From positions 19,034,001 to 19,098,000 of the forward strand of contig OX597823.1 of NCBI GenBank assembly GCA_951406725.2: 64,000 nt of DNA, read 5' to 3'. Positions 9,606 through 49,065 of the stretch are shown piece after piece; within the stretch, counting starts at the first letter, position 1, and each line of letters begins with the position of its first letter. This DNA is from Octopus vulgaris. Its lineage: Eukaryota. Under the pieces are notes generated by a model. That model searched no databases. It had not been told where the DNA came from and saw only the letters and a list, made by a program, of their open reading frames with translations. Both the position numbers and the translations under genes were made by a program.

Positions 9606-10092
9606 CCGGTGGCACATGATAAACAACATTTAAGCATGGTCATTGCCAGTGCCACTGGACTGGCTCCTGTGCAGGTAGTATGTAAAAAACACCTTTTGAG
9701 CATGACTGGCACATAAAATTATTCACTACACTCTCTGAGTGGTTGGCATTAGGAAGGACATCCAGCTGTAGAAACTTTGCCAGATTCAGAGTGGAACCTG
9801 GTGCAGCCATCTGGCTCACCAGTCCTCAGTCAAACCATCCAACCCATGCCAACATGGGAAGTGGACGTTAAACAACGACGATGATGATGATATATATATA
9901 TGTTTGTGTGACTGTATTTGTCCCCCCATCATCGTTTGACAACCGATGTTGGTGTGTTTACGTTCCAGTAACTTAGCAGTTTGGCATAAGAGACCAATAG
10001 AGTAAGTACTAGGGTCGATTTGTTCGACTAAAGGCAGTGCTCCAGCATGGGCACAGTCAAGACTGAAACAAATAAAAGAATAAAAAAAAGAA
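9604..10092 (+). mobile_element. RTE-LINE 3' UTR fragment (9604-9892) followed by the 3' half of SINE A
   Basis: GGCATTAGGAAGGACATCCAGC...GGACGTTAAAC(GAT)n matches 33880-34056. Confidence 0.8.
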
Positions 10093-17941: not shown

Positions 17942-18795
17942 TTTTTACTCTTTTACACGTTTCAGTCATTTGACTGCGGCCATGCTGGAGCACTGCCTTT
18001 AGTCGAAGAAATCAATCCCAGGACTTATTCTTTGTAAGCCTAGTACTTATTCTATCAGTCTCTTTTGCCAAACCACTAAGTTTCAGGGACATAAACACTC
18101 CAATATAGGTTGTCAAACAATAGTGGAAGGACAAACACAGACACAAAGACACTACACACATAAATATATATACACACACATATATATAGATAAATATATA
18201 TATATAGTAGTTGTGATACCTGTGCTGGTGGCACATAAAAAGCACCATTCGAACGTGGCCGTTGCCAGCGCCGCCTCGACTGGCTTCTGTGCCGGTAGCA
18301 CATAAAAAACAACCATCCAAACGTGGCCGATGCCAGCGCCACCCCGACTGGCTTCTGTGCCGGTGGAACATAAAAAGCACCATCCGAATGTGGCCGTTGC
18401 CAGTGCCGCCTTGGCTGGCTTCCGTGCCGGTGGCACGTTAAAAGCTCCAACCGATCGTGGCCGATCCCGGACCCCCCTGGCACCTGTGCAGGTGGCACAT
18501 AAAAAGCAGCCACTACACTCGCGGAGTGGTTGGCGTTAGGAAGGGCATCCAGCAGTAGAAACTCTGCCAGATCAGACTGGAGCCTGGTGCAGCCCCTGGC
18601 TTCCCAGACCCTGGTGCAGCCCCTGGCTTCCCAGACCCTGGTCGAACCGTCCAACCCGTGCTAGCGCGGAAAACGGACATTAAACGATGATGATGATGAT
18701 GATAATGATGATATACATATATATATATATATATATTACACAAACGACAGTGTTCTTCCAGTTTCCGTCTACCAAATCCACTCACAAGGCTTTAG
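17942..18795. mobile_element. SINE A (minus strand) interrupted by an RTE 3' UTR fragment (plus strand, ~18210-18712)
   Basis: SINE halves at 17942-18150 and 18745-18795 flank five ~62-68-bp tandem units and a (GAT)n tail. Confidence 0.85.
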
Positions 18796-19461: not shown

Positions 19462-19835
19462 CATTACCAGCATCGCCTTACTGGCACCTGTGCCGTTGGC
19501 ATGCGTAAAAAATTCGAGCGAGGTCGTTGCCAGTACCGCCTGTCTGGCTCAAAAAAATTCGAGCAAGGCCGTTGCCAGTACTGCATGACTGGCCCATGTG
19601 TAAAAATTCGTGCGTGGTCGTTGCCAGTGTCGCCTGACTGGCCCCCGTGCAGGTGGTACGTAAAAGCATCCACTACACTCTCGGAGTGGTTGGTGTTAGG
19701 AAGGGCATCCAGCTGTAGAAACTCTGCCAGATCAAGACTGGAGCTTGGTGCCACCATCTGGTTCGTCAGCCCACAGTCAAACCGTCCAACCCATGCTAGC
19801 ATGGAAAAACGGACGTTAAACGACGATGATGATGT
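19462..19835 (+). mobile_element. RTE-LINE 3' UTR fragment
   Basis: Matches 33860-34056 and ends in (GAT)n. Further copies at 26080-26370 and 48220-48452. Confidence 0.8.
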
Positions 19836-20989: not shown

Positions 20990-22262
20990 GTGGAAAAAAA
21001 GTCAAGATAGAAAATACTAAAATAATTTCGTCAAAAATATTTCAGTACTGGTTTCAGTCATGGAGACTTTTTCAACTGTAAGTATGGAAAACAATTAAAT
21101 TTGGAAAAATTAAAGGAAAAGTTTTTTTAAAAGAATATTTGCATAGTGTTCAAATACAAGTGGCATTTTCCTTGTTTCTGCCTGTCTATGGCTCTCTTCT
21201 TTACTCTTGTGGGTTTACTCTTGTGAATTCTTGGTAGGCAAGTTGGAGGAGGAGGAGGAGGAGGAGGATGGAGTGCCCTGACAGTAGTATGTTGAATGGT
21301 CAGCTGCCCTGAAAATGACCCACTGTGGATGGTAGTAGTAACTGTTGAATTCATGAAACATCTCTTTTGAAAGTTTTGTTTATAAAATTTACTTAGGTGT
21401 TATTCTAAACAGCATGTTATGGATTATAGCAGTGATTGGGACTGTTTTTTAATGAATTCATGGGAATCTCTTGAGTGTATCATTTTTGATATTTGTGTGT
21501 GTATTTGTGTTATTCTAAGGCCATGGTAGATATGTCGTTTGTTGTAGATGCATTCAAAAGGGATCTGTATTTTGTAATAAAGAGAGTCTCTTTACTGATT
21601 CGTTGGCTCCAGGTTGCATTGTCCCTGAATTGGTAGAGGGGAAAAATTCTGAAGCTTGGATTTTTATTATTGGTGCAAATATCTATGTATTGGCTGAATG
21701 CTATTTTTCTGTTTTGGGGAATTTTAATCTGGGATCTGTGCAGAGCCATTCTTTTACATAGACTGTTTTTTGTTTGGCCTATGTATTGCTCTTGGCACCC
21801 AGAGCAGGTTAGTGCATATATCAGGTTCTCTGAAGCACATGTGAAGTTGCTTTTCACTGTGAAATGTTGTCCCTGTTTGAAAGAGAACTCTGATCCCTCA
21901 ATTGAATTGATGCATATCCCACAGTTGGGTCTTCCGCATTTTTTTACTGATGGCTTCTGTGTTATTGAGCATATTCGGGCTTGTGTTAGGAAACTTTTCA
22001 TAGATTTGGGCTGTCTCTTGCTTTTTATGATGGTATGTGTTTGGAGGATTAGGTTCATTCTGTGGTCCTTTTTTAGCAGGGGTATGTTTTGCAGGATGGT
22101 GGCGAAGGCTTCATTGTTGAGAGGGTTGTGTGTGGAGACGTATGGTAGGGCTTTTGGTTGTAAATCTTTCTTTAATTTGGGATGTCTGAGTTCCTGGATG
22201 TTGAGTTGAAGGGCACGTTGAAAGCATATGTCAATTAATGAAGGTGGGTAGTTCCTGGTGAT
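20990..22262 (-). mobile_element. 5'-truncated Penelope-like retroelement (Neptune-type): RT thumb, Cys linker, GIY-YIG endonuclease, 3' pLTR region
   Basis: Open frame 22262-21510: RNYPPSLID...LPYVSTHNP...KCGRPNCGIC...FTCASENLIYALTCSGCQEQYIGQT...R...H...KE...LN. A hammerhead motif lies downstream on the same strand. Confidence 0.9.
21043..21078 (-). ncRNA. Minimal hammerhead-like motif, U3-A8 variant, in the PLE 3' region
   Basis: cag UUGAAAA aguc uccau gacu GAAA ccag UA cug. Confidence 0.7.
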
Positions 22263-22318
22263 GATAGGTCAGTAGCCACTACACACATTTTTTTTCTCTC
22301 CTTGTTTCTTTCTGAGTT

Positions 22319-26007: not shown

Positions 26008-26529
26008 GTATGTACATGTATTTATATATATATGTACGTACATGTATTTATATATATGTGTGTGTACATGTACATATGTAAAAAGCACCATATGTAAAAA
26101 GCACCTGGTCCCCGTGCCGGTGGCACATAAAAAGCACCATCCGTCCGTGGCCGTTTGCCAGCTCCATCTGGCACCTGTGCGGGTGGCACGTAAAAAGCAC
26201 CCACTACACTCACGGAGTGGTTGGCGTTAGGAAGGGCATCCAGCCATAGAAACACTGCCAGATCAGACTGGGCCTGATGCAGCCTTCTGGCTTCACAGAC
26301 CCCAGTTGAACCGTCCAACCCATGCTAGCATGGAAATCGGATGCTAAACGATGATGATGATGATGATGATATATATGCATATCAAGGGATGACCACTACG
26401 TGGACAACCCTTATGCTAGAAGTAGATCCGCGATGGTCTTACGACTAAGAAATGTTCTCAAGAAAAACTTAGCAAACACCAGAATGTAAGCGAGCAAGAG
26501 AAATGAAAAGTAACAAAAATATAGATTAT

Positions 26530-28535: not shown

Positions 28536-28609
28536 AATGTGACCATGTGTGTACAGTTGGCGATTTTTTTTCCTCCGTCTTCCCTTCTTTGGATCTTTCC
28601 TTTTCCTAT

Positions 28610-28644
28610 GTTTCTGACGAAGAGCTCCGCTCGAAACGTTAAAT
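28610..28644 (+). ncRNA. Minimal type I hammerhead-like motif with intact core
   Basis: guuu CUGACGA a gagc ucc gcuc GAAA cgU U aaau. Palindromic ACGU stem III. Confidence 0.75.
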
Positions 28645-29478
28645 CCTCCTTCTTTCTTTCCTTTCCTGAGCATCCAGTAATACTATACTTGTTCCACGTC
28701 CTCGCGTTGTGTTTTCTCTTTGTGTTTTCATGTTTGGATTAACTATATATATATATATGTATATATATATACATATATATATATATACATACATACATAC
28801 ATACATACATATACACATACATACACACACACGCGCGCGCGCACATACATATACACATATGTTTATGTTTCAGCAGAGCCATTGATCTAGTGGTTAAGTT
28901 GTTCGGCTGACAATCATAGGGTAGAGGGCTTGAGTCTTGAGCTGGGTGATGCATTGTATGCATAGCACTTTATTTTTCATACTATATCAAGTAAAGGATC
29001 ATAGAGCAGCCAAAATCATGCATTAACAGGAACAGACGCTGCAAGCTTTGCAATAGCTGAGCAAGCAAGGATCTTCAAACACTCCCTGGAAAAAGGGTTA
29101 CTGAACTCTCGTCAGGAAATTTATAATCCCTGTATCCATTTCAAATGCTACCTTCTACAAGCATAGGATTGCCCATTCATTGATTAAATCCTGAAAGGTC
29201 CTTACAAACTATAAGCAGCCTAAGGACGAAATACCGTTACCCCTCTTTTGGCCCACATGAACTGGTCTAAGGGAGGTAACCCATCCTTACAGACCTGGAT
29301 TCTTTATTTTTTGGTTACTTACTAATTAACTGACCATAACAGATCCCTGCCTCCCAGAGTTATATGTTTTCAGCTTTAGAGTGTGGTGATCCACTCATGG
29401 GGCTAGGCCCTTTATGGATGTAAAACCACTGGTCACTCTATGACTGGACATAGACTTAACTGCATGTAATATGCATAT

Positions 29479-33027: not shown

Positions 33028-34056
33028 GCCTCGCTCAGAGTAAAAGGTAGACTGTATGACGCATGTGTACGAACAGCCATGCTACATGGCAGTGAAACAT
33101 GAGCCATGACTGCTGAGGACATGCATAAGCTTGCAAGGAATGAAGCCAGTATGCTCTGTTGGATCTGTAATATCAGTGTGCATACACGACAGAGTGTAAG
33201 TGACTTGAGAGAAAAGTTGGATCTAAGAAGCATCAGATGTGATTTGCAAGAGAGACTGTGCTGGTATGGACATGTGGTGTGCATGGATGAGGACAGCAGT
33301 GTGAAAAAGTGTCACATCCTAGCAGCAGTTGAGGGAACCTGTGGAAGAGGTAGACCCAGGAAGACCTGGGATGAGGTGGTAAACCATGACCTTTGAACAT
33401 TGGGCGTCACCGAGGCAATGACTAGTGATCAAGACTTTTGGAAATATGCTGTGCTTGAGAAGACCCGGCAAGCCAAGTGAGACCATGACCCGTGGGCTAT
33501 GCCAGTGATGTAACCAGCCTACTTATGTGTTGCTTGCAAAGACCTGTTGAGGCAAGTGAAATCACAATCAAAATCAAATTCGCTGACATGGCTGATGCCA
33601 GTGGAACGTTAAAAGCACCATCTGAGCGTGATCGTTGCCAGGGCTGCTGACTGGCTCCTGTGCTGGTGGCACATAAAAAGCACCATTTGAATGTGATCGT
33701 TGCCAGCATCGCCTTCTTGGCACTTGTGCCAGTGACACATGGAAAACAACACTTGAGCGAAGTCATTGCAAGTGCCACTGGACTGGCTCCTGTGCAGGTG
33801 GCACTTAAAAAACACCATTTGAGCATGGCTGTTGCCAATACTGCCTGACTGGCCCTTGTGCCGGTGGCACGTAAAAGCATCCACTACACTCTCAGAGTAG
33901 TTGGCATTAGGAAGGGCATCAAGCTGTAGAAACTCTGCCAGATTAGATTGGAGTCTGGTGCCGCCATATGGCTCACCAGTCCTCAGTTAAACCATCCAAC
34001 CCATGCCAGCATGGAAAGCGGACATTAAATGATGATGATGATGATGATGATGATGA
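33025..34056 (+). mobile_element. 5'-truncated RTE-type LINE (ORF C-terminus + tandem-repeat 3' UTR + (GAT)n), inserted inside a minus-strand SINE A
   Basis: LYDACVRTAMLHGSET...ERLCWYGHVVCMD...GRGRPRKTWDEVVNHDL. SINE A halves at 32765-32960 and 34075-34228. Confidence 0.9.
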
Positions 34057-46998: not shown

Positions 46999-47094
<96 letters not shown>

Positions 47095-47185
47095 GAAATG
47101 AGGTAATCAGAAGATCGGATGGTTTATATTTACAGATATTTATTTATATATTACATTTTTTACATATATATCATATCACTTAGAT

Positions 47186-47224
47186 CACTAGCGCTTTCTC
47201 CCATTCTAGTGGGGTTTTCAAATC
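47186..47224 (-). ncRNA. Minimal hammerhead-like motif, U3-A8 variant (weak stem I)
   Basis: gau UUGAAAA cccca cuagaa uggga GAAA gcgc UA gug. Confidence 0.55.
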
Positions 47225-47854
47225 AAAATAAGTTCCTTTGTGGGGAATTTTAATCATTTTATAGAGTTTCGTAGTGGTGGGGAGAAATAAGACAGTACAA
47301 GAGGGTGAGGTGGATGAGGAGAAAGTGAGAGAGAGAGCATGTGTGTATGTGTATGTGTGTGTGTGTGTGTGTGTGTTTGTATCTGAGGTGAGTGCTAAAG
47401 AGAAAGAGGAAAAGGGAAAGGGAAGAAAAAGGAAAGAATTTTTTTGGTCTGCTGGACAGAATATATATATATCCTTGGCGATTTTTTCAGCTTTATTTAT
47501 TTTATACATTAATCTTAATCCTATTTCAGCCAGAGTTCTTCCGTCACACTTCTGGGACCTCATCAGTGGTCCTTTGCTTTCTTCTTTCTTATTTGTGTGT
47601 TTCTCCTTACTAATGATCAGCCATTTTGTCAAATGTTTGCATTATTTTATTTATTGTACTAACTAATTATGTACTACTATTATTTATTCTTTTATAACCT
47701 ATTTTCAAATTTCTGATTATTAATTAATAATTAAGAAAATTAATTTTTTTAAAGTACAAAAATACTTAGAGTTATTTTAAATTTTTAATAGAAGTAACAA
47801 GTAATAACATGTAATAAAATTTTTAGTCTTAATAAAAGCTAATATTTTCTAAAT

Positions 47855-48001
47855 CTGATATACCCTCCAGCCTTCAGGTATCTTGGGCATATGGTGTAGT
47901 GGCTAAGAGCACTAACCCCAAGATTCCAAGTTCAATTCCAAGCTGTGACCTGAATAATAATAATGATAATAATGATAATAATGATAATAATAATAATAAT
48001 A

Positions 48002-48054
<53 letters not shown>

Positions 48055-48218
48055 AACAACAACAACAACAACAACATCGAAAAATACCTTAGAAATGAGA
48101 ACCCAGGTTCGAAATTTCCCCAAGACACCTGATGAAGGCTGGAGGGTATATCAGTTGAAATGTTGTGTTAACAACAAACAAGGTGAGGACGAATATCCGT
48201 TGAATGTAAATAATGTAA
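47855..48218 (+). mobile_element. Composite element: inverted hammerhead fragment + tRNA-like head + triplet microsatellite + hammerhead (48124-48169)
   Basis: A-box-like TGGTGTAGTGGCTAAG and B-box-like AGTTCAATTCC. gacac CUGAUGA a ggcug gaggguauau caguu GAAA ugU U guguu. 47855-47887 is the reverse complement of 48119-48154 minus 3 nt. Confidence 0.75.
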
Positions 48219-49065
48219 AAAGTACCATTTGAGCGTAGCCGTTGCCAGTACCACCTGACTGGCCCTCATGCCGGTGGCACGTAAAAGCACCCACTACACT
48301 CTCGGAGTGGTTGGCGTTAGGAAGGGCATCCAGCTGTAGAAACTGCCAGATCAGATTGGAGTCTGGTGCAGCCATCTGGTTCGCCAGACCTCAGTCAAAT
48401 CATCCAACCCATGCTAGCATGGAAAGCGGACGTTAAACGATGATGATGATGAATTCCTCATCTCTTAAATATAGAACATTGTGGGTTATTGATGTGGAAA
48501 GTTCTGAGAATCATATTATCTGTATCCTTGTGTTATATTCCAAAGTTATACATTCTGTTTTAATGAATTCCATCATAAGAAATATTTTTCATCCATCCCT
48601 ATGTACTTGTAGCATTTTTCATTCAATACTGGAGAAATAATCAAGCCATAGGTAGCAATGTTGCTAGATGGTCTTGTAGTTTTCTTTTGCTTTACACCTG
48701 TTTAAGAACATTTATTCTGGCCAAATTCCATCCCTGGTTCATTTGAGAATGTCATAATGAAGCCAAGGCTTTTCTTCATACCATTCATATTTTTGGCACA
48801 TATATAGATCATCCATATGGAAGCAATGTGTCAAATTGGTGTTTCAGTATTCTTATGAGCCAATAGCATTTCCTTCAGACTTTCTTAACAAAAGAGACAG
48901 AAGGCTTACTGAAAGTAGGAATAGTTTCAGTGGCAGAAAGACAAAGAGAAACTGACAAAAGAAAAAGATAAAAAAATTAAAACAGGAAATTCCAGTGAAA
49001 ACAGCCACATAGAGGTGGTCTACATACTCTCCATTGACTGACAGGAGAGTGAATATGAGGATAGG

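Follow-up and report, generated by a model that had tools for sequence, protein, structure and literature searches.

What kind of element is a short locus of the Octopus vulgaris genome in which a tRNA-like head stands before a hammerhead motif? We examined this question in a 64,000-nt stretch of contig OX597823.1 (assembly GCA_951406725.2, positions 19,034,001 to 19,098,000), called the window below. The original prediction, made from the letters of the window, was of a Pol III-driven SINE or retrozyme that uses the end of a PLE in place of a LINE tail and carries an inverted fragment as a mark of PLE integration.

Structure of the locus

The predicted parts, an A/B-box head, an (AAT)(GAT)(AAC) linker, a same-strand hammerhead and an inverted 33-mer with a 3-nt deletion, are all present in the sequence (Table 1). 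The unit had been placed at 47855..48218; its end is not at 48218, for a nested SINE splits the unit and the family 3' end lies beyond it. Apart from a 3-nt gap in the core, the inverted piece corresponds to 48119-48154 read on the opposite strand (89%, E 2.5e-8 in a within-window comparison); GGG is common to it and to the head start, and its distal part is lost together with the left target duplication. Comparison of the flanks at the locus found no TSD for this insertion. The window head has a deletion of 7 nt between the two boxes, each identified by its match to the Pol III box consensus. The linker is highly variable in length among copies, with frequent secondary insertions, and the tail contains the predicted start of a PLE ORF (ATG at 48095), in a frame that stays open until the nested SINE. 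The locus is very probably a solo pseudo-LTR (pLTR) of a decayed coding PLE, with a remnant of an inverted arm and a CpG-damaged minimal hammerhead.

Table 1 Features of the locus, in window positions
Feature	Position	Strand	Basis and remarks
Inverted second-arm remnant, head-to-head	47855..47887	-	33 nt of pLTR tail, 3-nt core deletion
tRNA-derived head, the pLTR 5' end	47885..47954	+	Family comparison; best match tRNA-Arg(TCT)
Pol III A box motif	47892..47902	+	Sequence; presumed consensus
Pol III B box motif	47930..47939	+	Sequence; presumed consensus
Expanded (AAT)(GAT)(AAC) linker	47953..48074	+	Sequence and family loci
pLTR tail	48075..48217	+	~90% to family consensus
Minimal type I hammerhead motif, without loop III	48124..48169	+	Overlaps ORF start; predicted cut after 48164
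Nested unrelated 5'-truncated SINE, (ATG)n end	48216..48451	+	Sits in pLTR tail; 5 other window copies, 72-88%
True 3' end of arm, the optional ~30-nt PLE "tail" (long end)	48452..48477	+	Family alignment

Other repeats were noted in the window. Further copies of the nested SINE, at 9627-9880, 18220-18700, 19508-19830, 26105-26360 and 33596-34040, have 45-67-nt tandem units before them and (ATG)n at the end. Another abundant repeat, at 47465-47856 on the minus strand, abuts the inverted 33-mer, contains a hammerhead-like motif with a long stem II at 47566 and is also found directly before a head in locus L046; positions 47818-47849, considered as the end of a PLE ORF (E 0.02), were rejected as belonging to this repeat. 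The 3' end of a Neptune-like PLE family (L091, L094, L095 and L096; 82-95%) occupies 47090-47464 (minus strand), with a TA microsatellite at its end, and a Neptune-like PLE fragment at 21510-22268 (minus strand), which includes GIY-YIG and a linker finger, matches families A and D at 62-66%. A T-rich minimal-hammerhead repeat of ~200 nt is found between TA microsatellites at 28540-28745 (plus strand); it gave 1,873 candidates, with no tRNA head in the 12 loci viewed and a PLE fragment near 1 of 30 loci.

Head, linker and tail form an abundant family

Searches were made of the 2.8-Gb assembly. The tail gave 3,503 candidates, the best 40 of which, when scored, were the query itself and 39 copies at 94-96%; the 50-aa tail frame gave 37,512. 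Exact 18-mers counted 3,685 head starts genome-wide, and none in the reversed control. In 30 head-selected loci, which include the query itself and two duplicates, the tail followed on the same strand within 700 nt in 22 and lay further off, behind an insertion in the linker, in 2 more; 18 had an inverted copy on the 5' side. Forty tail-selected loci showed a full head in 18, a partial head in 7 and no head in that arm in 15, with an inverted partner in 24. The window is dense in nested repeats and the locus has two unrelated neighbors, a setting in which a tRNA SINE head and a hammerhead repeat could have come together by chance. The fixed order of the two, in 22 of the head loci, in 25 of the tail loci and in the coding element described below, refutes this, leaving chance a negligible probability, and upholds the earlier view of head and hammerhead as one family unit.

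Aligned to a tRNA-Arg(TCT) gene of the same genome, the head scored 61, compared with at most 47 in 2,000 shuffles; the comparison set was 30 tRNA loci with six isotype calls only. Both boxes have the canonical form in the consensus, and the remainder of the head has lost the tRNA fold. Two protein models, both of them predictions only, include the tail in their coding part: a receptor-like protein of O. sinensis (P0002, N-terminus) and a dystrobrevin beta model of O. bimaculoides (P0003).

A coding parent element

The stretch upstream of the head was common to 3 of 74 head starts. Used as a query, it gave 30 loci, with a head following in all 30, a tail in 25, and RT and endonuclease frames upstream. 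Exact 18-mers found 695 ORF-end/head junctions genome-wide (reversed control, 0), so that about one in five head starts (~19%) is joined to the ORF end and ~81% are without it; the genome-wide 19% replaces the counts from sampled loci (3/74 and 1/44), which under-counted extended heads. Among 30 RT-selected loci, the long end led directly into the ORF in 4 and a head came after the ORF in 16. Taken together, L184, L191, L202 and L204 and the N-terminus of the relative P0007 place a pLTR with ORF start and hammerhead at both ends of the element; L202 reads head-tail-ORF-head, and the order of the full element is head, (AAT)n, hammerhead/ORF start, RT, GIY-YIG, stop, ~30 nt, head, (AAT)n, hammerhead, tail.

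A consensus of 100 segments contains one 803-aa frame, with its start in the tail and its stop ~30 nt short of the head. The RT-fragment search found no intact copy among the 150 scored, the longest frame being 569 aa, and the coding partner is therefore inferred from decayed copies. A full-length relative of 847 aa (P0007, 55% identity) has the tail-encoded N-terminus as well. The sharing of the 3' part with a PLE, which the original prediction had supposed, thus takes the form of a tail that is the N-terminus of the coding PLE ORF. Relatives of 813-855 aa match PF00078, PF26215 and PF28514, and a few also PF01541. The predicted endonuclease has a CCHH motif and two Cys residues inside the GIY-YIG core (CxC), and it has no CX2-5CxxC linker finger; a CxC in the core with no linker finger is the Penelope/Poseidon layout as described in PMC8557442. 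Similarity to Neptune-like family A is only 29%. We assign the locus with high confidence to the pLTR of a coding PLE, by its layout of the Penelope/Poseidon type.

A Pfam scan of three decayed fragments gave nothing relevant, a PDB search gave no match, and a search for Pfam GIY-YIG recovered only Neptune-like PLE families, none sharing the tail, and so missed the coding partner. The 50-aa tail frame found no long ORF among 150 scored copies; its matches to longer proteins were rejected as a partner, being exonized pieces of the repeat. A close relative of the PLE protein (53%, cluster P0010) is found in the barnacle Amphibalanus amphitrite. Two other PLE families of the genome were noted. 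A young Neptune-like family (L105 and L106) has many intact 781-aa ORFs, an upstream N/Q-rich frame of 479 aa, direct repeats that are 100% identical in L106, and a variant hammerhead in which TTGATAA replaces CTGANGA; another PLE family (L097:1121-4283) has a 574-aa frame enclosed by a perfect inverted repeat of 766 bp.

The hammerhead is of the minimal type

The core of the hammerhead had been described as intact, which is true in part. The window copy retains a 5-bp stem I (GACAC/GTGTT, 48124-48128 and 48165-48169), CTGATGA (48129-48135), an extra A and GAAA (48157-48160), but the stem III palindrome of the family, ACGT, has become ATGT, and stem II has two G-U pairs where the family has G-C; this copy is probably impaired. 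The ATGT change is shared by 79 of 190 family copies, in which the first box is found in 160, GAAA in 167, the palindrome in 69 and all three in 54. The family consensus has CUGANGA, GAAA, a nucleotide between 9 and 10.1, G10.1-C11.1, a palindromic 15-16, a short stem I and no loop III; this fits the minimal hammerhead of PLEs, of low activity, as described in PMC4209133, and the original assignment of the ribozyme to that type stands. Rfam made no hammerhead or tRNA call in the window, in locus L242 or in the consensus head, and ARAGORN called no tRNA. A hammerhead of this form would cut only as a dimer or with the help of a protein.

Insertion marks and copying

The 59 loci contain 34 head-to-head pairs, 31 of which have one long arm, ending in the ~30-nt tail, and one short arm. 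No pair has two long arms; 2 have a truncated arm, the window locus among them, and 1 was called short/short, though BLAST shows a long arm. The flanks of 17 of 26 scorable pairs share a TSD-like word of at least 9 nt, compared with 2.8% in 31 shuffles (at most 11.5%). An inverted pLTR, a one-sided tail and a TSD make up the typical Penelope structure as described in PMC3846280 and PMC8557442, and PLE-type copying of the family is well supported. The inverted piece is, as first proposed, a PLE insertion mark. The flanks had been expected to show either an inverted pLTR or a TSD; both are present, in the same loci, and the either-or alternative falls away.

The inverted arm was further proposed to sequester the ribozyme. 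It pairs with the ribozyme half in silico; however, we found no evidence of sequestration. Because the piece lies 5' of the inferred RNA start, and because arm lengths vary freely among copies of the family, it is best read as an insertion remnant.

In the anole element PAc, two internal RT start sites flank the tail, both strands were cut and extended in vitro, ~55 nt beyond the start sites were needed, and insertion had no need of cleavage (PMC11167929). The octopus PLE protein would, like PAc in vitro, nick both strands of AT-rich DNA, and reverse transcription would be primed inside the RNA at two sites ~30 nt apart. Priming in the 5' repeat would copy from tail to head only, giving many short copies with a sharp 5' end, and priming in the 3' repeat would give copies that continue into the end of the ORF. 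With one cDNA made on each strand, from the two sites, the product would be a head-to-head pair of a long and a short arm, flanked by a 10-15-bp duplication; in the window, the second arm would later have been cut back to 33 nt and the first arm hit by the other SINE.

Origin of the short copies

The claim of a separate SINE or retrozyme with a borrowed PLE tail is not supported: the terminal repeat of the coding PLE comprises the entire unit together with its head, and judged by this arrangement, the unit is likely not a separate SINE. Solo and ORF-linked repeats vary at the same sites, and no variant was specific to solos, in a best-match sample whose solos were picked by likeness to two copies, a selection that makes this comparison weaker. 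Non-CpG divergence in the best-match sample is 3.7-4.7% for solo and 4.8-5.4% for ORF-linked repeats. A calibration in the available text of PMC13282606 equates 0.065 with 18 My, and as a rough inference the repeats are 10-20 My old.

The short copies were probably made mainly from ORF-bearing RNA. The ~81% of head starts without an ORF end would be explained equally well by a SINE-like short transcript, and most of the short copies might stem from short non-coding masters (head, tail and ORF stub) that Pol III transcribes and the PLE protein copies in trans. Such a second life would agree with the ~4:1 excess of short over ORF-linked copies at the head start, with candidate masters composed of head, tail and 120-340 nt of ORF (L234, L241 and L242), with small derived lineages that have one common junction (four loci on C29 and three others), and with the ability of pLTR sequences to act in trans as described in PMC3846280. 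Against it stand the lack of solo-specific variants and the direct joining of one head in five to the ORF end. Moreover, internal priming drops all sequence 3' of the tail, of which PAc needed ~55 nt (PMC11167929), so that true solos would be dead ends. We consider this origin improbable, and a spread of the unit as self-cleaved circular RNA from tandem copies far more so. The latter would draw on the hammerhead itself, on a few tandem derivatives of ~275 nt (L221 and L224) and on the proposal that retrozymes are PLE derivatives (bioRxiv 10.64898/2026.07.22.740005; see also PMC7229834 and PMC7761336, as far as their available text goes). Nearly all sampled copies, however, are solo or head-to-head and not tandem, their ends fall at the head and at two tail sites and not at the predicted cut, the minimal motif is of low activity as described in PMC4209133, and PAc inserted without cleavage (PMC11167929). 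Derivation from ORF-bearing RNA remains the reading that we prefer.

The small derived lineages of the PLE comprise loci L218, L221, L224 and L232, all on C29, and loci L222, L223 and L228; at their common junction the tail, followed by ~120 nt of ORF, leads back into the repeat, and two of the loci are tandem, retrozyme-like units of ~275 nt.

RNA start and the choice of polymerase

At the head start, ~81% of arms are lost in a stretch of 13 nt, compared with a loss of ~0.8% per nt within the head itself (21 of 65 arms across 50 nt). Copies that bear the ORF start at the head too, 3 of 4 with a full head and also L202, and where an ORF stub joins the repeat, 5 of 17 junctions fall at head positions 1-3. 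We read the sharp head start as the RNA 5' end, the alternative being an RT stop at a small hairpin. A "fixed site" 113-127 nt into the ORF was discarded as a selection artifact: a 62-nt query moved the pile-up to 71-83 nt.

The 2,715-nt consensus contains no T4 run, where 4.9 are expected by composition (p 0.004) and 2.7 by synonymous shuffle (p 0.03), and TTT is at 0.45 of expectation. The 22 long decayed segments have 28 T4 runs in 44,520 nt, and four other PLE families of the genome, represented by single copies, have 1.7-4.6 per kb. Metagenome contigs gave 80 related loci, 67 of them of sufficient length for comparison, which sets a consensus against single copies; their median is 3.2 T4 per kb. 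The absence of T4 is not unique to the octopus element, as 4 of the 67 also have none over 1.3-2.3 kb; the TTT ratio is at most 0.45 in 1 of the 67 and at most 0.8 in 9. No A/B pattern was found after the ORF in the 67 relatives, of which only ~25 reach far enough.

In three RNA-seq runs with a related organism label (~6% of reads), most of the repeat was covered to a depth of ~400-1,700 in each direction, and the ORF to a depth of 1-16. Both directions were equal and ~69% of the repeat reads ran into unlike flanks; the libraries are fragmented and apparently unstranded, and short RNAs are lost in such libraries. Neither read starts nor read ends formed a peak, and no splice joint was seen in the repeat. 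These reads look like copies carried in host transcripts and say nothing on Pol III.

The A and B boxes at the start of the repeat, the start of most copies at that point and the lack of T4 point together to Pol III transcription. The RNA would start at the head and run through the ORF, and the absence of T4 would let Pol III read to the end. The tRNA-derived head is likely to have served as promoter; that Pol III in fact used it we judge an even chance. T4 depletion and A/B boxes are support and not proof, and translation of an uncapped RNA is a problem for this reading. The same PLE may instead have been transcribed by Pol II, with a TATA-like motif at the ORF end as promoter of a capped RNA beginning at the head. 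In that case the 5' UTR would contain the head as a fragment captured from a SINE or tRNA, and either the Pol II start or an RT stop at a TGCCC-AC-GGGCA hairpin would account for the sharp 5' ends. A TTATAA overlaps the stop codon, ~28 nt before the common 5' end, which fits Pol II; a TATA at about -28 is, however, compatible with Pol III as well. Transcription by Pol II would also solve translation through its capped RNA, TATA- or CCAAT-like motifs are seen by eye at the same place in several relatives and in family A, and known PLEs keep promoter and start in the pLTR, with TATA and Inr in Pen2a (as described in PMC3846280 and PMC8557442). On the other side, the boxes are canonical in the consensus though the tRNA fold is lost, Pol II has no need of a sense-strand depleted of T4 and TTT, and the repeat reads have no splice joint, unlike D. 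virilis Penelope. We judge the Pol II account rather unlikely. Overall, we favor with reasonable confidence a solo pLTR of a decayed coding PLE whose tRNA-derived head was likely its promoter.

Discussion

The octopus element resembles the EN+ PLEs of the Penelope/Poseidon group, as described for PAc (PMC11167929), Adineta Pen2a (PMC3846280) and in PMC8557442, in its single ~830-aa ORF with RT plus an EN of GIY-YIG type at the C-terminus, the CxC in the core without a linker Zn finger, and a pLTR that contains the ORF start and a hammerhead. Inverted 5' arms, a ~30-nt tail on one arm, 10-15-bp TSDs and solo pLTRs are likewise common to both. Unlike them, it has a pLTR that opens with a tRNA-derived A/B-box head, no sense-strand T4, the letters CVY/YKG for GIY-YIG, and no sign of an intron.

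Short repeats in which a Pol III-type promoter precedes a type I hammerhead are already known from Schistosoma, as Sm-alpha and Sj-alpha; these PMC6765202 describes as non-coding and often tandem, with an efficient canonical hammerhead and, in its available text, no identified coding parent. The octopus unit, in contrast, is the end of a coding PLE, with a minimal ribozyme and with copies that are solo or head-to-head; what would distinguish the octopus variant is a Pol III head inside the pLTR of a coding PLE. Helenus, Cassandra and Ajax ("TRIMp3") also have Pol III motifs of small-RNA origin in a terminal repeat, with boxes kept and fold lost, but they are short non-autonomous LTR elements (Helenus, 311-1,263 bp) and not a 2.7-kb coding PLE (as described in PMC10886601). 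Metazoan non-LTR retrozymes share with the octopus family non-coding hammerhead repeats related to pLTRs, yet the available text of PMC7229834 and bioRxiv 10.64898/2026.07.22.740005 defines them as tandem units with circular RNA and reports no tRNA head, that of the preprint mentioning neither tRNA nor Pol III, whereas the octopus family is mostly non-tandem. The available text of PMC13282606, PMC6962438, PMC3531059 and PMC6155905 does not describe the octopus element.

A tRNA head, a length of ~300 nt, thousands of dispersed copies and a TSD are also typical of tRNA-derived SINEs, including OK, OR1 and OR2, which Ohshima and Okada reportedly described from octopus in 1994. The octopus unit differs from these in having no LINE-derived 3' end or simple-repeat tail and in being part of a coding element. 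In the literature searched we found no coding PLE described with a tRNA-headed pLTR, though one may exist in Repbase, Dfam, subscription papers or supplements.

The strict long/short arm rule (31 of 34 pairs, none with two long arms) is evidence from the genome for internal priming at two sites and on both strands, a process until now demonstrated only in vitro. Cephalopod annotations would file such solo repeats as unclassified SINEs. Pol III promoters in terminal repeats were previously described for short non-coding elements, and use of such a promoter here would bear on how PLE RNA is made and translated, and on the origin of hammerhead-bearing SINE-like repeats. Tentatively, and at somewhat less than even chance, a coding retrotransposon may have swapped its Pol II promoter for a tRNA-derived Pol III one and purged all T4 from 2.7 kb, while internal priming shed thousands of SINE-shaped copies. 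If true, this would be a direct route from a PLE to a SINE and a candidate origin of Sm-alpha-like repeats with Pol III promoter and hammerhead.
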